Source: a virus
Taxonomy: Duplodnaviria > Heunggongvirae > Uroviricota > Caudoviricetes
Strand: one strand, 5' to 3'
Virus record (IMG/VR): IMGVR_UViG_2619619130_000001
Length of the DNA: 23,805 bases
The position numbers were made by a program, and so were the translations under genes. This document shows, piece after piece, positions 129-16,666 of the stretch. How positions within the stretch are numbered: the stretch's first letter is position 1; each line of letters begins with the position of its first letter. Under the pieces are notes generated by a model. That model saw only the letters and a list, made by a program, of their open reading frames with translations. It was not told where the DNA came from and did not search any database.

Positions 129-171
129 TCTATTGTCACTTTTTATCGCCACTTTTTACCCTCTATTGTCA
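129..171. repeat. Direct repeats TCTATTGTCA (129-138, 162-171) and CACTTTTTA(T/C) (137-146, 150-159); candidate integrase arm-type sites
   Basis: Short direct repeats read off the sequence next to the att core; they overlap the 3' end of int. Confidence 0.3.
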
Positions 172-1157
172 AAAGGGTTCAATTCAACTGCAGCCTCTAA
201 ATGACCTGGAGCAAAATGCGCATAACGCATAGTCATTTTTATATCGCTATGCCCCAGTATTTTTTGCAACACAAGAATATTTCCTCCCCGCATCATAAAA
301 TGACTGGCAAACGTGTGACGTAGCACATGAGTTAATTGCCCATCAGGAAGCTCGATCTTCGCTCTCTTAATTGCAGCGTCAAAAGCCTCATAACATGGTG
401 AAAATAACGCTCCTCGTTTTTTAGGAAGCATAGCCTGCAATTGAGGTGAAATCGGTACAGTGCGGTTCTTCTTTCCTTTAGTTTTAACAAATGTGATTCG
501 ACCGGGCAGCACTTGAGATTGCTTTAATCCTTCAGCTTCACTCCACCGAGCACCAGTCGCAAGCCCAATACGGACAACAACCCCCAAATCTTTATTCCGT
601 GACTCATCACACGCAATCAGAAGGCGTTCAATCTCATCTACATACAGAAACGCCAATTCCTTTTCTTCCTCACGAAACTTGCGAATGCCAGTCAGGGGGT
701 TTTCACCAGACCACTCCCCAAGGCGCTTCAGTTCGGCAAAAACAGCATGTAGATATGACTGCTCGCGATTAACGGTTGCTTCACTAAGTTTTTTCTTCCC
801 CTTGGGATTCCATTCTCCTGATAACCTCCTTTCCCGATAAGTAGCAAACATATTTTTGTCAAACTGAGAAGCAAATGGATCTCCCAGCCTGGAACAAATA
901 GACTCAAGTTTGACTTTGCGCTCTGCACCAGAGGACAAGGTTTTACCGTACATCTCAAACCAACGAGCAACCAACTCAGAAAGACGAGGACCAGAACCAT
1001 CTTGAAACTCGTCTCCAACTCTACTATTCATTAAACGGCGCTCATAAGAGAGCGCCTCACTTTTTGTCGCAAACTGTTTACGAATACGTTTTCCCGATGC
1101 CCCGTAAGGATAACATTCGCAAAGCCATTTACCTGATGGAATCTTACGAACCGACAT
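156..1157 (-). CDS. int: Tyrosine site-specific recombinase (phage integrase)
   Basis: 333-aa ORF with C-terminal catalytic signature HVLRHTFASHFMMRGG...LGHSDIKMTMRYAHF (R..H-x-x-R..Y); sits next to the tRNA-derived att core. Confidence 0.9.
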   Translation of the reverse strand: MSVRKIPSGKWLCECYPYGASGKRIRKQFATKSEALSYERRLMNSRVGDEFQDGSGPRLSELVARWFEMYGKTLSSGAERKVKLESICSRLGDPFASQFDKNMFATYRERRLSGEWNPKGKKKLSEATVNREQSYLHAVFAELKRLGEWSGENPLTGIRKFREEEKELAFLYVDEIERLLIACDESRNKDLGVVVRIGLATGARWSEAEGLKQSQVLPGRITFVKTKGKKNRTVPISPQLQAMLPKKRGALFSPCYEAFDAAIKRAKIELPDGQLTHVLRHTFASHFMMRGGNILVLQKILGHSDIKMTMRYAHFAPGHLEAAVELNPFDNRG

Positions 1158-5181: not shown

Positions 5182-8004
5182 GTGGCAACGGAGTACATCA
5201 GAGACTGGCAACAACCACGCCATGCAGTCGGTGGCGAGGGAACGGGGGAGCCTGTCCGCCCCTCCCTTCTTTCTTCCTGGCTGGATGCCTACCGGGCAGA
5301 GAACGAGCGCCGCCAGGAAATGGCTGATGCGGCGTTCTCCGCTGCACCACTGGGCAATCTGATTAATAAAAGCCTGGACGCACAGGAAAAACAGGACAAA
5401 GCCATCACACTGGCAAGAGAAGCCAGAAAGCAGGCACGCGGTGCGGTGGATGAAGCCATGGCCTCGCTGCGTCTGCTGCCGTCCTATCTGCGTGATCCGC
5501 TTATCCGCCATCTCTCTTTCCTGCACAAAAAACAGGAATCTGGCCACCAGAAAGGCAAAAAGAACCAGCAGGCGGAACGCTATGCGAGCGGAACCCTGCG
5601 CAAAATATTCGAACGTCTGGCCCGCACCGACCGTCGCTGGCTGACTCCGGGTTATCGCTCCCTTGCCGGACGTGAACGTCTGGACGATTTGCTGTACCTG
5701 CCACAGCTCAACAAGCACCAGATACAGACGCTGGCCGTCATGACGGCGGCAATGTTCAGCAGCACCTTCGAAAAACTCTGCGATGGCTGTGGCGCGACCG
5801 ACGGCGAGCTGACCATGGATATAACGCTGAAGGCGTATCAGATGCTGGCCCGCATGGCGTTACATCTGCACACAGTGCCGCCGCATTATGACGCACTGAC
5901 AACAGACAAAGACCGGAAGAACGAACCGGACACGGAACTGCTGCCGGGTGCAATCCTCCGCCTGACCTGTGCGGACTGGTGGAAACGCAAACTGTGGCTT
6001 TTACGTTGCGAATGGAGAGAGGAACAACTCCGCGCTGCCTGTCTAGTTTCCAGAAAAACATCACCCTATCTGAGTCAGGACGCATTAAGTGAATTTCGCG
6101 CACAGCGCGAGAAAACACGCGATTTCCTGAAAAGTTTCATGCTGGAAAATGAAGACGGGTTCACGATTGATCTCGAGACAGTGTATTACGCGGGAGTAAG
6201 TAACCCGGTCCACCGTAAGGCAGAAATGATGGCCACCATGAAGGGACTGGAACTTCTGGCCGAAGCCCGTGGCGACAGAGCGGTGTTTCTGACTGTCACC
6301 TGCCCGTCAAAATACCACGCTACAACAGAGAACGGTCATCCGAATCCCAAATGGAACGGCGCCACCATGCGCGATTCCAGTGATTACCTGGTTAACACTT
6401 TTTTTAAGGCGGTCCGCAAAAAACTGAATCGCGACGGCCTGCGCTGGTATGGCATCCGCACGGTGGAGCCACACCATGACGGCACCGTGCACTGGCACAT
6501 GATGGTCTTTGCACATCCTGAAGAAATCGACAGCATCGTGGACATCACCCGTGATATTGCCATTCGCGAAGACCGCCACGAGCTGGGCAATGACATAACT
6601 CCGCGCTTTAAGGCAGAGTACGTCGACGGTTCGAAAGGTACGCCGACCAGCTACATCGCCACCTACATCGGAAAGAACCTGGACAGCCGCGCCGTGGATG
6701 GCATTGACCCGAAAACAGGCAAGCCACGCGTTGATCACGAAACCGGAAAATCAATGGCCGAGAGCGTGGAACGCGCCATCGGCTGGGCGCGCCTTCACCG
6801 CGTCCGCCAGTTCCAGTTCTTTGGTATCCCCTCCCGTCAGGTATGGCGTGAACTCCGCCGCCTTGCCAGTCAGATGGCCCGCAACCCGGAAGGTCCACAA
6901 CGTCTGGAAAATGACGCAATGGATGCGGTACTCGCTGCCGCTGATGCCGGGTGTTTTGCCACCTACATTGAGAAACAGGGTGGCGTACTTGTTCCACGCA
7001 AGGATTACCTGATTCGCACCGCCTACGACCTCGCAGAAGAGCTGAACGATTACGGCGAGCAAAGCGTACAGATTTACGGGATCTGGTCGCCACAAATCGG
7101 GGAATCTTCCCGCGTGTGCACGCACCCGGATAACTGGAAGCTGGTAAGACGTAAACCGGAAGCGGAAGACAGCGCCCGCGAAAATGGTTTTGACCTTCAG
7201 GGCGGCCCTGCCGCCCCTTGGACTCGTGGCAATAACTGTCCCCGTGTACAGGAAACGGACAACAACGGGACAGAACAGCCGGAAGAACGGCCATCACCGT
7301 GGCCGCAGCTTCCTGACGGCGTTGACGTGAATGAATGGATGCGCTCACTGAAACTGCACGAACGCCGGGCGCTGATGCGTTCGCTGCGTGACAAACAGGC
7401 AAAAAACAGCAGTGATGAAATGCAGAACTGGACACAGAGCCGCAAACAGCCACGGCCTTTGCCTGATAACCACGAGTTACTCGCTAAAGAATGGCGGGAG
7501 TCTGCTGAATCTCTCGGCCTGCATATCGGTGAACAGCAGATGCAGCACCTGTTACGGGGCGGCAGTCTGTACGTTGACGGCAGCATCATTGCACCGCAGG
7601 GATTTGAAATTGTACGCAAACCGGATACCCGCCCGGACAGCCGAATCACGCAGCTCTGGCAGCGCCTGAGCCGCAATCACGGCGTAAGCAGCACGGAGAT
7701 CCGCCATAACCCGGTCGCCAGCTATCTGGAACAGCTGGGGGCATCAGACCCCGAAGCCGCCGCACGCCTGGCATCCACACTTCAGCAGGACCAGAACACC
7801 ATGAAAACCCCCGTTACCGTGCTTTCTGACATGCTGCGCGCCATCCGTGACGCAGAGCACGCACAGAGAATCAGTGAAACCACTGAACGCGCCCACCGCA
7901 AAGCAGACCTGCTGCGGGGTAGCCTGACCAGTGGAAACAAAAAACAGACAGAAACGGGATTCACAAATCCCGTAAATGAGCAAAAAACGTGCCGCGATAT
8001 ATGA
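5182..8004 (+). CDS. A: Rolling-circle replication initiator / endonuclease (P2 gpA family)
   Basis: 940 aa; HxH metal motif (VHWHMMVFAH) and paired active-site tyrosines YIATYIGKN; position after early operon as in P2. Apparent GTG start at 5182. Confidence 0.88.
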   Translation: MATEYIRDWQQPRHAVGGEGTGEPVRPSLLSSWLDAYRAENERRQEMADAAFSAAPLGNLINKSLDAQEKQDKAITLAREARKQARGAVDEAMASLRLLPSYLRDPLIRHLSFLHKKQESGHQKGKKNQQAERYASGTLRKIFERLARTDRRWLTPGYRSLAGRERLDDLLYLPQLNKHQIQTLAVMTAAMFSSTFEKLCDGCGATDGELTMDITLKAYQMLARMALHLHTVPPHYDALTTDKDRKNEPDTELLPGAILRLTCADWWKRKLWLLRCEWREEQLRAACLVSRKTSPYLSQDALSEFRAQREKTRDFLKSFMLENEDGFTIDLETVYYAGVSNPVHRKAEMMATMKGLELLAEARGDRAVFLTVTCPSKYHATTENGHPNPKWNGATMRDSSDYLVNTFFKAVRKKLNRDGLRWYGIRTVEPHHDGTVHWHMMVFAHPEEIDSIVDITRDIAIREDRHELGNDITPRFKAEYVDGSKGTPTSYIATYIGKNLDSRAVDGIDPKTGKPRVDHETGKSMAESVERAIGWARLHRVRQFQFFGIPSRQVWRELRRLASQMARNPEGPQRLENDAMDAVLAAADAGCFATYIEKQGGVLVPRKDYLIRTAYDLAEELNDYGEQSVQIYGIWSPQIGESSRVCTHPDNWKLVRRKPEAEDSARENGFDLQGGPAAPWTRGNNCPRVQETDNNGTEQPEERPSPWPQLPDGVDVNEWMRSLKLHERRALMRSLRDKQAKNSSDEMQNWTQSRKQPRPLPDNHELLAKEWRESAESLGLHIGEQQMQHLLRGGSLYVDGSIIAPQGFEIVRKPDTRPDSRITQLWQRLSRNHGVSSTEIRHNPVASYLEQLGASDPEAAARLASTLQQDQNTMKTPVTVLSDMLRAIRDAEHAQRISETTERAHRKADLLRGSLTSGNKKQTETGFTNPVNEQKTCRDI

Positions 8005-8080: not shown

Positions 8081-9040
8081 ATGAAAATTTGTATCGACGA
8101 CGGCTCCACCAATATCAAGCTGGCATGGACTGAGAACGGCGAACGCCGCAACGCTATCAGCCCGAACAGCTTCAAGTCGGAATGGTCTGCGCCGTTCGGT
8201 GGCACGCAGCCCGCGAACTACATGCTTGATGGCGTGCGCTATGGTTTTGATCCGGTCAGCGATCGCTTTGTCCAGACGACCGACACGCAATACCAGTACA
8301 GCGATGTGAATGTCATTGCCATTCATCACGCGCTGGTCAAATCAGGCATCACACCACAGGAGGTGGATGTGGTTGTCACCCTGCCACTGAGCGAGTATTT
8401 CGACACAAACGCACAGCCGGACATGGCCAACATCAACCGCAAAAAAGCGAACGTTATGCGCCCGGTGGAGTACCAGAACGGCAAAGCATTCACTATCCGT
8501 AACGTACGGGTTATGCCTGAATCTATTCCGGCTGGCTTTAAAGCACTGGCTGACATGAGTCCGTTTGAATCCCTGCTGATTGTGGATTTAGGCGGAACCA
8601 CGCTGGATGTAGCAAAGGTTCAGGGACAACTGGCAGGTATCAGCCAGGTGTTTTGCGATCCACACGTAGGCGTTTCCCTGATGGCCGATGCAGTACTGTC
8701 GGTGATGGCCACTAACGGTATGCGTACCAGTCACCACATCGCCAATACCATTATCGAACATCGCCATGATGAAGCCTGGCTGCGCCAGCACATCCATAAT
8801 GACGCGCATTACGCCAGCCTGATGGCGGTTATTCGTGAAAAGGAAGAAACACTGAAACAACGCGTGATCCGCGCGCTGGCGGGTTTTTCGGGTTACGGGC
8901 GGGTGATGGTTGTCGGTGGCGGGGCGGAGATTGTGGCACCCGCTATCCGCGAAGCCTGCGGAGTTAATGCGACTTTCATCGCGGACGGGGGGCCACAGTT
9001 TGCTCTGGTTAATGGGCTGTACGCAATGGACAAGGAGTAA
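8081..9040 (+). CDS. parM: ParM/StbA-family actin-like segregation ATPase
   Basis: 319 aa; N-terminal CIDDGSTNIKLAW, SDVNVIAIHHAL, VMPESIPAG, LIVDLGGTTLDV and VMVVGGGAE motifs align along the length with plasmid R1 ParM as I remember it. Confidence 0.85.
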   Translation: MKICIDDGSTNIKLAWTENGERRNAISPNSFKSEWSAPFGGTQPANYMLDGVRYGFDPVSDRFVQTTDTQYQYSDVNVIAIHHALVKSGITPQEVDVVVTLPLSEYFDTNAQPDMANINRKKANVMRPVEYQNGKAFTIRNVRVMPESIPAGFKALADMSPFESLLIVDLGGTTLDVAKVQGQLAGISQVFCDPHVGVSLMADAVLSVMATNGMRTSHHIANTIIEHRHDEAWLRQHIHNDAHYASLMAVIREKEETLKQRVIRALAGFSGYGRVMVVGGGAEIVAPAIREACGVNATFIADGGPQFALVNGLYAMDKE

Positions 9041-9044
9041 ACCA

Positions 9045-9356
9045 ATGACGACTCCAACCAGACGGATAAGTTTCTATCTGAAGCCCGCCGCCGTCAAGAA
9101 CGAAGGAGAAGCATGCGCCTGGCTGGACAGCCTTACACCAGAAGCCCGCAAAAGCGGCCAACGCGTGGCTTTTCTGGCCGGGCTGGCACTTCTGAAAATG
9201 AATCCGGCAGAGGCTTACCGACTAGCTGCATGGGCTGATGATGAAGCGTTATCAGTGACACAAACCAGGACAGAACGCCCCGCATCACAGCCAGTATCAA
9301 CCGCACAGATAACCAGTCAGATGGCCGGAAATATCCGGGCGTTATTTCCTGAATAA
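9045..9356 (+). CDS. parR: ParR/StbB-like centromere-binding adaptor
   Basis: 104 aa from ATG 9045 (RBS AAGGAG); RRISFYLKP, WLDSLTPEARKSGQRVAFLAGLAL and C-terminal RALFPE resemble R1 ParR; directly follows parM. Confidence 0.72.
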   Translation: MTTPTRRISFYLKPAAVKNEGEACAWLDSLTPEARKSGQRVAFLAGLALLKMNPAEAYRLAAWADDEALSVTQTRTERPASQPVSTAQITSQMAGNIRALFPE

Positions 9357-9364
9357 CACAACAT

Positions 9365-9382
9365 CAGGGCGAGTTCGCCCTG
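9365..9382 (+). terminator. GC-rich stem-loop after parR (possible attenuator/terminator)
   Basis: CAGGGCG-AGTT-CGCCCTG hairpin seen directly; no clear U-tract, so weak as an intrinsic terminator. Confidence 0.3.
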
Positions 9383-9419
9383 CTCTCCACCTCAGAACAT
9401 AAACAAGGAGAACGACTTA

Positions 9420-9803
9420 ATGAGCGAAATCAACTATCAGGCATTACGTGAACGTTATTCACCTGTGCCAGTACCGAAATGCCCTATTTGCGGCGAGGAA
9501 ATGTCAATTCAGCGAATATCTGGAGCACAGGTTGTTTATGCCTGCTCCGGTTATGGTGATGATGGAGATTTCAAAATTGGTCGAACTCTTGCCGACGAAC
9601 ATTATGAAAAATCACGCGTAACAGTGTTGGATGTCGGGGATCCTGAAGTATTGGCGCTACTTGATTGGCTGGAAACCAAAGACAACCGAATCGCTGAACT
9701 GGAAAAAATCGCCACTGACTATGCACTTAAATTCCAGAAAGCACAGGACGCATTAAAGTACGCCGCTTTGCTGCATAGCAGGACAGCGCAGCTACAAGAC
9801 TAA
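9420..9803 (+). CDS. Hypothetical protein with CxxC zinc-ribbon-like motif and C-terminal coiled coil
   Basis: 127 aa; KCPICGEE...YACSG then heptad-like LDWLETKDNRIAELEKIATDYALKFQKAQDALKYAA; AAGGAG RBS; within the variable locus. Confidence 0.6.
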   Translation: MSEINYQALRERYSPVPVPKCPICGEEMSIQRISGAQVVYACSGYGDDGDFKIGRTLADEHYEKSRVTVLDVGDPEVLALLDWLETKDNRIAELEKIATDYALKFQKAQDALKYAALLHSRTAQLQD

Positions 9804-9893
9804 CTTAAAGCGGAAGATTAATACATGGTGAGTCAGGGTAATTTGTTTTTATCCCGACAAATAAACAAAAAAGTGGACTATCTCTGTAGTATC

Positions 9894-10424
9894 TTATTCA
9901 GCATCGTCTCGTGCAGTCTGTGCATACGTCACAACAACGCCCAATGCATTAGTTTTCTTTTCAACATAGATAATATTGTCATATTCATAGTTACCATACG
10001 GATAGCAAATAAGAATATTTTTATGCAGATCGGGATCATCAACAAACGCTCCGGAACAGCTTCTTGAACTACCGGATGTATACTCATACGGTGCAACATA
10101 TGATGATGTTACTCCTGGTAAAAAATAAGTCACCATCATAAGAGGGATAATCAGGAATATCCCTGTAAGAATGCAAGAGCCAGCATAAACCTTCAGGTAT
10201 TCCGACAGTCCTTTCCAGCCACTTTGCTTCACTACCCCCCTCTTCACCAGAAACAAGGAGAAGAAAAAGGACATACCCATACTACACAAGATGTAATAAT
10301 TGGATATACGCGAATTAAGATATGTAATCCTGTAGATATCTGCCCTCCACCAGTAAAAGAGGAAAATAATCCCTAGCACTGAAACAGTCATGCAAATCAA
10401 ATAAGGATATGAATCTTTCTTCAT
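9894..10424 (-). CDS. Integral membrane protein (about 3 TM helices + ~70-aa soluble C-terminal domain), function unknown; candidate exclusion/abortive-infection cargo
   Basis: 176 aa; hydrophobic segments LICMTVSVLGIIFLFYWW, YYILCSMGMSFFFSLFLV, AGSCILTGIFLIIPLMMVTYFL; strongly AT-rich unlike flanking phage DNA; convergent with the preceding gene. Confidence 0.65.
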   Translation of the reverse strand: MKKDSYPYLICMTVSVLGIIFLFYWWRADIYRITYLNSRISNYYILCSMGMSFFFSLFLVKRGVVKQSGWKGLSEYLKVYAGSCILTGIFLIIPLMMVTYFLPGVTSSYVAPYEYTSGSSRSCSGAFVDDPDLHKNILICYPYGNYEYDNIIYVEKKTNALGVVVTYAQTARDDAE

Positions 10425-10772
10425 GTCTTGCGCTCATTAAAATTTCCCTGCTACGAACAAATTTACCATCCGTTTTTTGCGCAGAAAACAGCACGATGCA
10501 CACTGCACGATAGTGCACAAATTTGCACAATTTTTTTGAACGACTTTTTACCCTTCCGGCCCGCATGGCGGCTGGATCCGTCAAGGATCCGTGCGTGCAC
10601 AAAAAAACGCGTTTTTTCTGCGCGCAGGTGACGGGGGAACAGCCCGCGTTTCAGGGGGTAAATAGCATTCCCTGAACGATGTCGCAGAGACACAACAGAA
10701 TGGCTGTATTTCTCACGCTGAGCGTGAAAAATACGTGAGGGATTCTGATTTGATGGGGTGAAAGGTAAGGCC

Positions 10773-10794
10773 GTCAAAATCGCACTGAGGCGGC
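10773..10794. other. Candidate cos (cohesive end) site
   Basis: GAGGCGGCAAAGAAC resembles the P2 cos sequence as I recall it (GGCGAGGCGGGGAAAGCAC) and lies ~165 bp beyond the Q stop, where P2 places cos. From memory, unverified. Confidence 0.3.
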
Positions 10795-10902
10795 AAAGAA
10801 CATGCAGTCAACGCGGTGGGATTGCGTAAGAGTCTGACCGCCGATGATGGCAATAAGCAGAAAAGCGTCGTGAAATTATCTGATTGATACAGGAGCTGGA
10901 GA

Positions 10903-10931
10903 GCCGGGGCATAAATTTTTTATGCCCCGGC
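10903..10931 (-). terminator. Strong hairpin just downstream of Q (likely terminator of the leftward P-Q transcript)
   Basis: GCCGGGGCATAAA-TTT-TTTATGCCCCGGC, 13-bp perfect stem, located 25 bp past the Q stop. Confidence 0.45.
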
Positions 10932-10955
10932 GAAGCAGCAGACAAGCGAAGCGCG

Positions 10956-12002
10956 TCAGGATGTGGGCTGGGTATCTAACAGTGCGTAAGGGTTAAAGCG
11001 GATCACCTCTTCGCCAAGCCAGTCATTGATGTGCTTCATGGCCTCCATGACGGGCATCAGCTCGTTAATTGCGTAAACCCGCGCGGCCTTCTCCACATCA
11101 CCAAACGCACTTTTTTCACCCGGCATCGCCCCCATCAGTTGCGGCGGAACGCGGTGCGCAGCCAGCACATCATCACGGGATGCCGCCTTAACATTCATGA
11201 ACTCATCCTTTGCGGTGATCTGCTGGAACGGCAAAATTTGCACCCCCTCTTTGCCCCCGTTGGGCGCATGAATGAGCACGTTTTTAAACGCACCGCCACC
11301 ACGTGCACCCTGTAGCGTTTCTTTCAGGGAGTCCATGCTTTCGCGGTTTACCTGCGCTGCACCGATGTAGATGATGCACCCGGCGTGGGATCCGTTGTCG
11401 TAATACAGTTTTCTGAACATGTCCGCCGAATGAGACAGGCTGGCCGAGAGTAATGCGCCGAGATATTCCGGCATGCCGTAGATTTCCTGGTTAATGTCAG
11501 GATTCATCAGGTGGCACACTTTGCCAGGGCGAAACTGGAACGCATCCTTGCCATCCTGCACATACCACCATGATTCAAGATCGCTACCGCGTCGCATGTA
11601 TTTCGCCAGGGCGTGCCGTAATTTAAGCGGTTCGCCGAGCATATTGCTTCGAAGCTCAAGGAATGCGTTACCGAACACAAACCAGTCCAGCGCCAGCGCC
11701 GAGAAATCCTGCCGGGAAAGCAGCGGGTGCGGGATGTAGCAACCGAGTAATACATTGCGCTTAAAGTAAAGCGCAGACTGATGCCAGGACGTTTGCCGGG
11801 CAGCTCTTGCCAGACCGTACCAGTCCACCGGGGTTTCATACCACCGCCCGTTATCAGCACAGTACATATTGTCCAGCAGGTCATGCCCGGTCAGGCGATA
11901 AGGACCATCAAATGTGAATGCACTGAGCGACGATTCTTTCCTGAGCGCATCAGCGAGATCAATGCGTGAACTCATGCGCACTTTTTTATTTTTTCTGCTC
12001 AT
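10956..12002 (-). CDS. Q: Portal protein (P2 gpQ family)
   Basis: 348 aa (P2 Q about 344 aa); second gene of leftward P-Q pair; overlaps P stop by 1 nt. Confidence 0.85.
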   Translation of the reverse strand: MSRKNKKVRMSSRIDLADALRKESSLSAFTFDGPYRLTGHDLLDNMYCADNGRWYETPVDWYGLARAARQTSWHQSALYFKRNVLLGCYIPHPLLSRQDFSALALDWFVFGNAFLELRSNMLGEPLKLRHALAKYMRRGSDLESWWYVQDGKDAFQFRPGKVCHLMNPDINQEIYGMPEYLGALLSASLSHSADMFRKLYYDNGSHAGCIIYIGAAQVNRESMDSLKETLQGARGGGAFKNVLIHAPNGGKEGVQILPFQQITAKDEFMNVKAASRDDVLAAHRVPPQLMGAMPGEKSAFGDVEKAARVYAINELMPVMEAMKHINDWLGEEVIRFNPYALLDTQPTS

Positions 12003-13753
12003 CAGAACTCCATAACCGTGAAACGCTCGTTTTCTCCTTCGCCGCCAATCGGTTCGTTAATGACAGCAAGCATGGTTGCCCACGCAAGGTCGCCGTGGCT
12101 GATCCCCCTCGCGCGGTCCGTTTCGTAAGTGATGAAGCCGCCCGGTGTTTTCACCTTACGCACGGCGTTAAAGGCCGCGACCAGCTCGCGTTCGGCGCGA
12201 TCGTATTCCCACCGCCCGGCACGCATTATTTGCAGCATTTTCAGTACCAGCGACCGTTTTGATGACAGCGTGAAGGTGTACGGAATAGCAGCAGGGAAAA
12301 ACCGTTTCACTATCTGATAAACAGCCTCCCCGTTCCCGCCCGTCACATCAATGCCGATGTGTTCCACGTTGTAGCGACACGTGAACTCTTCAATGACTCT
12401 GGCCTGTTCTTCAAACTCCAGCCCCTGAACGCGTCGCGTCTCCACCGTTCGAAAACGGCCACCAGGAACAGCCGGAGGAACCACCACGGACACAGCGCCG
12501 CTGTCGCCGTTGCCACTGCTGCCGTTTGCGTCATACCCAATCCATACCGGACGATTCCCCATCGGGCGGGGAGCAAAAGGTTTCCAGTCTTTCCAGTCGT
12601 CGTATCCGTCAACGCCACAGCCAATCAGGATATTCAGGTTAAATGCCGATTCCCCTTCGCGGACAAACTCACACATATAGAGATTGAGGAACTCGTCTTC
12701 GGTGTTTTCATCACGAATTTCGTTGATATCGGTGTGTTTCCAGCCGTGATTAACCACATCTTCCAGCGTGACAATTTGCCGCCACGTCCTGTCAGAGCAG
12801 ATAAGCCCGTTATGCAGCGTTTTCCAGTCCACAGAAAAACGCTGGCGTTTATGCGAGGCCTTTTTCTCGTTCCAGCGGTCGCCGTTCCAGTAGGCGTATG
12901 CCTCGTGCGTTTCGGTGGATGGCGTGGAGAAGTAGGTGCGCCGCAGTCCGCTGAGGGTTGCCATAGCGCCAGCCACCTTGCGCAGTTCAGCAAAGCGACT
13001 GACCCAGAAAAATTCATCAAAATAAAAATTGCCCGTATAGGACTGTGCCGACGCAGCAGAAGTGCCGAGAAAATGCAGCTCTGCGCCGTTGGAGAGGATG
13101 ATTTTATCGCCCCCTTTCAGCTCGACATCAACTTCAGCCGCGGCCTTCTGAATAATGCTTTTAAACTGGAACGCCTGACGACGCGACGCAGACAAAAAAA
13201 TCTGGTTACGCTGGTAAGGCTGCGCCACATCGTCACGCAGCGCCATCAGCAGTGCTTCCTGCGCAAAATACCATGTCGCCCCAATCTGTCGGGATTTCAG
13301 GATCATCCTGTTACGTATCCCGGCTTCCCTGCAAAGGGTCAGGGAGTCAAACCAGCCCCGCTGATGCCACTCCAGCCTGCTGATGATTTTTTCCCGCAGT
13401 GCGGCAATCTGTTCCGGCGTGAAATGATTCTTGAGCTTTTTCGCCCGGCCTTTCTTTCCTGTGGCCGTTGCATCCGGCTGGCCATCATGCAGTTTTTTAA
13501 GCTGCCGGGTCAGCAGGTCTATTTCCTTGAAGTCACCACCTGTTTTATTCTGTTTTTCAGTAAGCTGGATGAGGCGCGCATCGATGGACTGCGTGACACG
13601 CTGCACGGGTGGCGTTTCATCCCACTGGTCGCGTTTTTTCCACGCATAAATCGTGTTCGGGTTTATTCCCATCAGACGTGATATTTCTGCGGGCGGATAA
13701 CCCTGCCAGTAAAGTTGCCGCGCACGCTGGCGCACAAAAGCGTCCTGAATCAT
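12002..13753 (-). CDS. P: Terminase large (ATPase) subunit (P2 gpP family)
   Basis: 583 aa; N-terminal HTH YWQGYPPAEISRLMGINPNTIYAWKKRD and ATPase region KSRQIGATWYFAQEA; size and position as P2 P. Confidence 0.9.
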   Translation of the reverse strand: MIQDAFVRQRARQLYWQGYPPAEISRLMGINPNTIYAWKKRDQWDETPPVQRVTQSIDARLIQLTEKQNKTGGDFKEIDLLTRQLKKLHDGQPDATATGKKGRAKKLKNHFTPEQIAALREKIISRLEWHQRGWFDSLTLCREAGIRNRMILKSRQIGATWYFAQEALLMALRDDVAQPYQRNQIFLSASRRQAFQFKSIIQKAAAEVDVELKGGDKIILSNGAELHFLGTSAASAQSYTGNFYFDEFFWVSRFAELRKVAGAMATLSGLRRTYFSTPSTETHEAYAYWNGDRWNEKKASHKRQRFSVDWKTLHNGLICSDRTWRQIVTLEDVVNHGWKHTDINEIRDENTEDEFLNLYMCEFVREGESAFNLNILIGCGVDGYDDWKDWKPFAPRPMGNRPVWIGYDANGSSGNGDSGAVSVVVPPAVPGGRFRTVETRRVQGLEFEEQARVIEEFTCRYNVEHIGIDVTGGNGEAVYQIVKRFFPAAIPYTFTLSSKRSLVLKMLQIMRAGRWEYDRAERELVAAFNAVRKVKTPGGFITYETDRARGISHGDLAWATMLAVINEPIGGEGENERFTVMEF

Positions 13754-15865: not shown

Positions 15866-16666
15866 ATGATTACTCCCGCACAGCAACACTGGCAGAACGT
15901 GATGGCACAGCGCGCAGGCCGGGCGAATGAAGGCGTGGACCACGCCGCGCGTACCGCGCATGAAGAGGTGCTGTATCGTCTGCGTCTGGCACAGGCACGG
16001 CTTAAGGGCGTACAGGCCAGAAGCGCGAAAGCCGCCATCAAAAAAGAGTTATTGCCGGACTTTTCCGGCTGGATTGAGGGAACGCTGGAGGCTGACGGCG
16101 GGCAGCAGGATGAAGTGATTGCCACGCTGATGGTGTGGGCGATTGACTGCGGCGATCTTCCGCTGGCGCTGCGTATTGGTGCATATGTGGTCCGTCACAA
16201 CCTCATCATGCCGGATAACTTTGGACGTACTGCTGCCACGGTACTGACCGAAGAAATCTGCAACCCGGTACTGACGCAGGCCGGGACGGATGCCGACGCG
16301 GATTTATCCGCCTTTATCGAACCACTGGACACACTTTGGGAAATTGTCGCCAACCAGGACATGCCGGACGAAGTGCGCGCCAAATTATGCAAGGCGTGTG
16401 CCTTTGCCCGTCGTGGCCTGACCGATGCAGACAGCATTGCCTCATCACTGAAGCTGCTGCGCGAAGCGATGCACCTGAACCCGAACGCAGGTGTGAAACG
16501 CGAGATTGCAACCCTTTCCCGCGCCCTGAAAAAAGCCGATTCCGCAGGCACATCAGAAGACGCCAGCGCACAGCAGGCGCAGGACGAAAGCAGCAAAAGT
16601 AAAAAGACAACGCGGAAGCCTGCAACACGAAAAACCACCGCGACGCAGAAGGCGAAGCGCGGTTAA
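15866..16666 (+). CDS. M: Terminase small/endonuclease subunit (P2 gpM family)
   Basis: 266 aa; KKELLP and MPDEVRAKL motifs match remembered P2 M; basic C-terminal tail. Confidence 0.85.
   Translation: MITPAQQHWQNVMAQRAGRANEGVDHAARTAHEEVLYRLRLAQARLKGVQARSAKAAIKKELLPDFSGWIEGTLEADGGQQDEVIATLMVWAIDCGDLPLALRIGAYVVRHNLIMPDNFGRTAATVLTEEICNPVLTQAGTDADADLSAFIEPLDTLWEIVANQDMPDEVRAKLCKACAFARRGLTDADSIASSLKLLREAMHLNPNAGVKREIATLSRALKKADSAGTSEDASAQQAQDESSKSKKTTRKPATRKTTATQKAKRG

Follow-up and report, generated by a model that had tools for sequence, protein, structure and literature searches.

Between the cargo genes and the portal gene of the prophage studied here lies a stretch of non-coding DNA in which several short repeats are crowded together, and the question raised by this locus is what such DNA does. 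The original prediction placed the stretch between the cargo and cos and read it as terminase-recognition (cosB-like) DNA of a P2-type phage, as the promoter/operator of the adjoining membrane-protein gene, or as both. The window, that is the whole 23.8-kb stretch of DNA that was analysed, is a P88-like prophage (Xuanwuvirus, P2 family). Its nearest phages are P88 and other Xuanwuvirus members, which show 93–95% identity across 10501–11000.

The open reading frame map and Pfam matches show the P2 gene order in the window, namely integrase (156–1157, minus strand), replication gene (5182–8004, plus strand), cargo (8081–10424, mixed strands), the stretch in question, portal, large terminase, and a block of scaffold, capsid and small terminase genes. 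The cargo consists of ParM-like, Plasmid_stab_B and Ead/Ea22-like genes and of a gene for a 176-aa membrane protein without a Pfam match, a moron gene on the minus strand (9894–10424). A non-coding gap (10425–10955) separates it from the portal gene Q (10956–12002, minus strand) and the large terminase gene (12002–13753, minus strand). The latter encodes a homologue of gpP with 44% identity to the P2 protein and an N-terminal helix-turn-helix domain (Terminase_5). The scaffold, capsid and small terminase block runs on the plus strand from 13875 onwards and includes the small terminase, a gpM homologue with 36% identity to P2 gpM (15866–16666). The gap is bordered by the replication-gene/cargo hotspot on one side and, on the other, by the genes for portal (Q) and large terminase (P), which are oriented divergently; this is the slot of a P2-family cos. 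In P2 itself, cos occupies the equivalent slot, with old/tin on one side and gene Q on the other, and the cargo hotspot of the P2 family directly adjoins cos (Rousset et al., PMC9122126).

The ParM/StbA-like and Plasmid_stab_B (ParR-like) genes after the replication gene (8081–9356) are also present in P88 and P88_4B11, and represent a plasmid-type partition module within an integrating P2-family phage. The far end of the gap, directly beyond the 3' end of the portal gene, contains a hairpin (10903–10931) whose stem, GCCGGGGCATAAA/TTTATGCCCCGGC, is perfect over 13 bp; it has a 3-nt loop and A/T runs on both sides. This stem is probably a bidirectional terminator and the counterpart of P2 tQ.

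The short elements that had originally been listed for the stretch are indeed there. TGCAC starts at 10497, 10504, 10514, 10524 and, for the fifth time, at 10596, and GCACGA occurs at 10491 and 10505. The tandem GGATCCGT-CAA-GGATCCGT is located at 10574–10592, and the perfect palindrome AAAAAACGCGTTTTTT at 10602–10617 is the sole perfect 16-nt palindrome in the window. A cos-like element had been placed at 10626–10644; it is present as GGTGACGGGGGAACAGC at 10627–10643, the claimed interval being one base too wide at each end. By statistics alone, the TGCAC cluster is the only element that stands out. Five copies in 110 bp were reached in none of 500 first-order Markov simulations, the simulated maximum being four, and the two-unit TGCAC pattern is unique to the stretch within the window. 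About 0.45 perfect 16-nt palindromes are expected per window, so the palindrome is not significant. Exact 8-mers repeated within 8–20 nt number 13 in the window against about 5.6 expected, and with so many close repeats elsewhere the GGATCCGT tandem is unremarkable by itself.

The pattern GG[CT]G[AT][CG]G.?GGGG, which describes the head of P2-family cohesive ends, has a single match in the window, at 10627. The 19 nt that begin there, GGTGACGGGGGAACAGCCC (10627–10645, plus strand), are predicted from their similarity to P2-family ends to be the cohesive-end sequence (cosN). Compared with the P2 cohesive end GGCGAGGCGGGGAAAGCAC, 13 of the 19 positions agree without gaps, which bears out the partial resemblance to P2 cos noticed earlier. 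The P2 19-mer itself finds no match anywhere in the window at up to three mismatches, and the sequence in the window is thus a diverged variant. A bridging variant, GGTGACGGGGGGAAAGCCC, was found in a related E. coli prophage (L135) and matches P2 at 15 of 19 positions. The predicted cohesive end lies inside the stretch and no other cos-like sequence was found in the window. The stretch is therefore very probably the cos region itself, and not DNA between the cargo and cos.

The cos sites of P2, 186 and P4 are described as a conserved core of 55 bp that includes 19-nt 5' cohesive ends (Ziermann and Calendar 1990, as cited in PMC9122126, PMC5694545 and PMC3931495), the extent of the core being our own reading of P2/P4 identity. 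For comparison, the record ends of P2, 186 and P4 were joined, and TGCAY positions were counted with the first base of each annotated cohesive end as the reference. For the Ralstonia phage RSA1, whose experimentally determined end begins with GGTGAGGCGGGG (PMC5694545), offsets were measured from the record end, and for the window from 10627. In P2, TGCAY is found at −123, −111, −101 and −29 and the cohesive end starts with GGCGAGGCGGGG. Both 186 and P4 carry it at −124, −111, −101 and −29, with ends starting with GGCGTGGCGGGG and GGCGAGGCGGGG, respectively. RSA1 has copies at −129, −110, −100 and −29, plus one more at −35. The window, P88, P88_4B11, the Enterobacter Novemvirus phiT5282H and a satellite of E. 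coli E9 share the offsets −123, −113, −103 and −31, with a further copy at −130 in the window, and a predicted end starting with GGTGACGGGGG. Between the P2 group and the P88 group, the sequence separating the motifs is unrelated, and conservation is confined to the motif and to its spacing relative to the cut. According to a rough calculation, if four offsets are given in a region of 165 nt, four motifs would all fall no more than 2 nt away from them with a chance of the order of 1e-5.

The stretch therefore shares with P2, 186 and P4 not only the genomic slot but also a related GC-rich 19-mer starting with GG(C/T)GA, TGCAY with an A-rich run about 30 bp before the cut (−29 to −31), and three phased TGCAY at about −100 to −125. 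The last of these marks of a P2-family cos was derived in this analysis from P2, 186, P4 and RSA1. At −29, TGCATTAAAACC of P2, 186, P4 and RSA1 appears to form the left edge of the published 55-bp core, and TGCACAAAAAAA at −31 would be its counterpart in the window. The differences from P2, 186 and P4 are that the repeat reads TGCAC instead of TGCAT, that the 19-mer deviates at 6 of 19 positions, and that the offsets are shifted by 2 bp. In addition, the 20 bp before the cut contain no counterpart of the CCGCCCCG...CGGGCGG hairpin of P2. Given the agreement of only 13 of 19 positions, the nicks could be displaced by a few bases; a 2-nt shift makes three of the four repeat offsets equal to those of P2.

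More distant systems show the same principle to varying degrees. RSA1 resembles the stretch in its TGCAT copies at −110, −100 and −29 and in the start of its end, GGTGAGGCGGGG. The Pseudomonas phage phiCTX has TGCAGAAAAA at −29, and its record annotates repeats R3–R6 around cos; it differs in its GCAG-type repeats, its 21-nt ends as annotated and an annotated IHF site near cos. The cos of lambda (cosQ-cosN-cosB, with R1–R3 for gpNu1 and the IHF site I1) is likewise composed of a nicking site, one-sided repeats thought to position the small terminase, and bending between them. There is no sequence relationship with lambda, however, the ends are 12 nt long in lambda and 19 nt here, and the array is some 100 bp distant, on the side facing away from the packaging genes. 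Furthermore, the IHF consensus WATCAANNNNTTR has no match with at most one mismatch within 10484–10650. Lambda cos is an analogue and not a family member.

The conservation of the individual elements was examined on several levels. Of 5426 complete E. coli genomes, 1140 carry the stretch, and the match begins at 10501–10504 in almost every one, whatever the cargo or its orientation. E. coli H3 (NZ_CP010167.1) matches 10495–10700 with 100% identity. The records of P88-like phages show the same start of homology. As this boundary is constant across cargos, the TGCAC array belongs to the phage backbone and not to the membrane-protein cassette. The phage phiT5282H matches the window only at 10504–10648, which gave the first sign that exactly this stretch may be a functional unit. 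A gapped pattern limited to the −31 element and the first bases of the 19-mer retrieved 28 loci from the genome collection, distributed over Escherichia, Salmonella, Citrobacter, Klebsiella, Enterobacter, Kluyvera, Kosakonia, Serratia, Erwinia, Pantoea, Mixta, Izhakiella, Symbiopectobacterium and Apirhabdus. Another two records from the pattern search, labelled Vagococcus (L144) and Bacillota, are probably mislabelled or due to binning errors or contamination.

Since the offsets of the distal array were absent from the search pattern, the test of its conservation is unbiased. Among 33 distinct sequences from about 15 enterobacterial genera, YGCRC is found at −123 in 30, at −113 in 32 and at −103 in 31, compared with a background of 2% per position. 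In the window, these positions are occupied by three direct repeats on the plus strand with a 10-bp period, TGCACGA at 10504 and TGCACAA at 10514 and 10524, followed by a T7 tract (10504–10540). By analogy with cosB, we propose that they form a distal terminase-recognition array. The additional TGCAC of the window (10497–10501, offset −130) is situated on the cargo side of the backbone boundary and is not conserved.

Further elements, all given for the plus strand, follow towards the cut. The block ACCCTTCCGGCCCG (10550–10563, offset about −77 to −64) is moderately conserved; CCCTT is found near −76 in 23 of the 33 distinct sequences, and the conserved form of the block is CCCTT(Y)CCGSCC. An imperfect GC-rich dyad, recognised by eye, starts within this block (10557–10576). 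In the GGATCCGT tandem, wide conservation is limited to GGATC in the second copy (10585–10589, offset −42), which is kept in 22 of the 33 sequences; the first GGATCC copy occurs in four. The proximal repeat TGCACAAAAAAA (10596–10607, offset −31) consists of TGCAC and an A7 tract. It overlaps the perfect palindrome, which is specific to the window (1 of 33) and reads ACGCGCTTTTT in most relatives, its T-half not being conserved. The left flank of the predicted cut, GCGCGCA (10620–10626), is conserved, although it was in part included in the search patterns. In 103 distinct IMG/VR variants, near-invariant blocks cover 10504–10538, 10596–10606 and 10620–10647, the last of which is partly invariant by ascertainment, and the neighbouring segments vary. 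The conserved parts are consequently the phased repeats with the T-tract, CCCTT(Y)CCGSCC, GGATC at −42, TGCAC with the A-run at −31, GCGCGCA and the 19-mer. The tandem and the palindrome, two of the elements originally listed, turn out to be lineage-specific and consistent with chance.

Two further observations concern sequences near the cut. The GGATC at 10585–10589 contains a Dam methylation site (GATC) that keeps its distance from the cut while the neighbouring sequence changes, and its methylation state might influence recognition of the site. Moreover, CGTTTTTT and GCGCAGAAAA upstream of the membrane-protein gene (10471–10488) are exact reverse complements of AAAAAACG and TTTTCTGCGC, the two halves of 10602–10623. 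The sequence, which is also present in the phage 434 copy described below, is of low complexity, and the match may be due to chance.

It could be argued that the intergenic DNA is AT/GC-patchy, and that the short elements came together in it by chance without any function. In agreement with this, neither the palindrome nor the 8-mer tandem exceeds chance expectation, and neither is conserved. The TGCAC cluster, however, exceeds all 500 simulations, and its position is kept across genera and satellites, as is that of the 19-mer. For the array and the 19-mer, chance is refuted; the palindrome and the first GGATCC copy alone are still accounted for in this way. As an explanation of the locus as a whole, chance is hardly credible.

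The most telling evidence for a packaging site comes from satellites. P2 and its satellite P4 have only cos in common (PMC9122126, PMC9594776), and the P88-type site seems to be shared in the same manner. An island in E. coli E9 (NZ_CP104500.1; L134, 1–9004) carries an Icd-like gene, a large primase gene, an integrase gene, cos, an ogr/delta-like zinc-finger gene, small ORFs, a 236-aa ORF and a P2-family major capsid gene, whose product has an N-terminal extension of about 118 aa. The DNA of this island matches the 23.8-kb window only at 10503–10669 (80% identity) and over 125 bp inside the integrase gene. Islands of the E9 type are present in 53 of the 5426 E. coli genomes, and the part that they have in common with P88-like prophages is the cos segment only. 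A second, diverged family, with a primase 59% identical to that of the first, was found in Kluyvera, Erwinia, Izhakiella, Apirhabdus and Enterobacter as well as in a metagenome contig. It matches the window only at 10501–10648 plus a short stretch of the integrase gene. The metagenome contig of 12,723 bp represents a unit of 12,207 bp with a terminal overlap of 507 nt. Counting all loci of the satellite families (besides L134 also L162, L139, L140, L145, L150, L151+L156 and L159), satellites extend to at least six genera besides that of E. coli.

In the satellite DNA examined by annotation and tblastn, which includes the metagenome contig as a full unit, neither family has a homologue of terminase or portal. 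No sid or psu was found among the annotated genes of the satellite DNA examined, and the literature searched contains no description of capsid-encoding satellites of this kind. Two satellite families without a terminase homologue in that DNA share with the window essentially only the stretch from 10501/10503 to 10648/10669, much as P4 shares cos with P2. Helper-packaged satellites have kept exactly this stretch, so a functional cos would comprise about 150–170 bp and nearly coincide with 10484–10644. The right flank of the predicted cut, GCGTTTCAGGGGGTAAATAGCATT (10646–10669, plus strand), is delimited by the end of the blastn match to the E9-type satellite at 10669, in which its first 18 nt, GCGTTTCAGGGGGTAAAT (10646–10663), are identical. 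This flank is not common to the second family, whose homology ends at 10648. A further feature of the E9 satellite is a dense set of GGTTACAA/GTAACCG repeats in both orientations between its integrase gene and cos (L134, 5440–5790), which is possibly a replication origin.

Layout, conservation and satellites together support the terminase-recognition part of the original prediction, and 10501–10669 is very probably the cos (cohesive-end) packaging site of this P88-like, P2-family prophage.

A different assignment of the TGCAC repeats would make them the promoter/operator of the membrane-protein moron gene, where a regulator binds and leftward transcription is controlled. The gene starts 80 bp from the array, and in P2 the annotated old-tin transcripts start at 33424 and 33426 (minus strand), with the homologous TGCAT array at about −26 to −52. 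Phage 434 has the same membrane-protein gene with a degenerate copy of the array upstream. Yet the array persists in P88, where the cargo lies on the opposite strand and is closed by a terminator of its own. It persists equally in Novemvirus-like phages, the cargo of which is unrelated, and in satellites, where the upstream neighbour is an integrase gene. A consensus scan found no sigma-70-like sites in 10350–11000, and no −35/−10 hexamers with 16–18 bp spacing are present inside the stretch. The best candidate read by hand lies to the left of the array (10453–10488, minus strand), with an extended −10 TGGTAAATT (reverse complement of 10460–10468) and a weak −35-like TTTTCT (reverse complement of 10483–10488), in a block that is conserved in the phage 434 copy. 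The membrane-protein gene is thus most likely served by a putative promoter to the left of 10490, and a promoter function of the array itself is unlikely. The operator reading does not fit the conserved part well, as the array belongs to the backbone, the scan yields no promoter there and the best candidate, apart from its weak −35, is located outside the stretch. For a dual use as terminase site and promoter, one point can be made, namely that the −35 region of P2 old-tin lies inside the homologous array; given this overlap, conservation of the array could partly reflect transcription.

The membrane-protein cassette has a history of its own. In two segments (9806–10561 and 10640–10702), it is common to phages 434, mEp332 and 2B8 with about 76% identity. 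The phage 434 copy is located at L004 2003–2817, and the lambdoid copies are antisense in the exo-xis region. They include both flanks of the P88-type cos without the 78-bp core (10562–10639), and the junction lies at short GCCCGC direct repeats. This arrangement suggests that lambdoid phages acquired the cassette from a P2-family hotspot and that the foreign cut site was lost in the process.

Transcription could also be affected in another way, if the array acted as a terminator or insulator that halts read-through from early or cargo genes before cos, by means of a hairpin GTGCACAAATTTGCAC followed by T7. A terminator scan flags 10513–10528 with the T-run as one weak hairpin, and P4 has, immediately after psu, a good hairpin that is formed by its first two TGCAT copies and has T's behind it. 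The stem of the hairpin in the window has only five pairs, however, and its fold energy is ordinary (z = −1.56). P2 and 186 have no comparable hairpin with a T-run at the array, P88 already possesses a strong terminator just upstream of it, and the conserved feature is the phasing of the repeats and their distance to the cut rather than pairing. A terminator is therefore very unlikely. In the stretch in general, folding compared with shuffled sequence gave z-scores of −0.1 to −1.7, none of them significant, and Rfam returned no matches at E ≤ 1.

Three other candidates were considered and set aside. Small ORFs are annotated across the site in P88 and in the E9 satellite, and their relatives contain frame-breaking indels, namely a 5-nt deletion just after the 19-mer in P88_4B11 and a 1-nt change of spacing in L145. 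A centromere for the ParM/ParR-like genes was rejected, as the array is also found in P2, Novemvirus-like phages and satellites that have no ParM-like gene in the parts examined, and as the cargo separates it from these genes in the window. An inspection by eye for an Ogr-type activator site (TGT-N12-ACA) in the array resulted only in near-misses.

Public data were also searched for DNA ends at the predicted cos. None of the phage records searched starts or ends at the site, the ends of IMG/VR loci do not cluster there, and the collections searched hold no virion-end data for any P88-type phage. The record of P88_4B11 starts 78 bp to the left of the site; its source paper reports no terminus mapping, and this start was consequently treated as arbitrary and not as a physical end. 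A metagenome scan revealed a food-metagenome contig (L182, coverage 168) that ends 13 nt into the 19-mer. The satellite MAG contig QAKE01000006.1 (L151+L156, labelled Bacillota), which at 12.7 kb exceeds the length of one unit, stops after 16 nt of the 19-mer, followed by AGATGTGTA, the adapter-like start of the Nextera mosaic end. These two contig ends are weak hints at physical termini; a repeat that phages and satellites have in common could equally have broken the assemblies there. No paper on the cos of P88 or of Xuanwuvirus was found in the literature searched. The cos of the P88 type is an expected element in diverged form.

From the homology with P2, the following course of packaging can be proposed. 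After excision and replication, the phage genome would be circular, and P2-type terminase reportedly takes circular monomers as substrate. The terminase, composed of the small subunit gpM and the large subunit gpP with its N-terminal helix-turn-helix domain, would recognise cos and place staggered nicks at or very near 10627–10645, the exact positions being taken over from P2, to generate 19-nt 5' cohesive ends GGTGACGGGGGAACAGCCC. It would then feed the DNA through the portal into the procapsid, in a presumed direction. Recognition may involve the three 10-bp-phased YGCAC repeats about 100–125 bp on the cargo side of the cut, the fourth TGCAC with its A-tract at −31, the GGATC at −42 and the GCGCGCA flank. 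Owing to the 10-bp phasing, all three distal repeats would face the same side of the helix, where they may align the terminase in the manner of the R sites in lambda cosB. The T7, T5 and A7 tracts may bend the DNA and thereby bring the distal array and the cut into one complex. The small terminase gpM is a candidate for binding the repeats, which could be read by gpM or gpP.

The use of TGCAC instead of TGCAT and the differing 19-mer probably entail a distinct packaging specificity, in line with the low identity of gpM (36%) and gpP (44%) to their P2 counterparts. A broader proposal, which we regard as tentative, is that the phased YGCAN triplet, about 100–125 bp from the cut and outside the 55-bp core, is a specificity-determining terminase-recognition module of the whole P2 family. 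Packaging guilds might then be defined jointly by the 19-mer and by the fifth base, which is T in P2, 186, P4 and RSA1, C in the P88 type and G in phiCTX. One of them, the P88-type guild, would include widespread satellites of its own, about 12 kb long and seemingly undescribed, with a P2-family capsid gene in place of sid and psu.

Since a cos is expected in any P2-like prophage, an annotation question has been resolved here rather than an open problem. The gain in annotation covers a prophage type that is present in about one fifth of complete E. coli genomes. A cos at 10627–10645 sets the ends of the virion genome and the right-hand boundary of the cargo hotspot. If the packaging specificity is indeed separate, it decides which satellites and cosmids each helper mobilises. 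Such helper specificity would bear on the spread of the defence and cargo genes located beside cos, and on the design of P2-family transducing particles.
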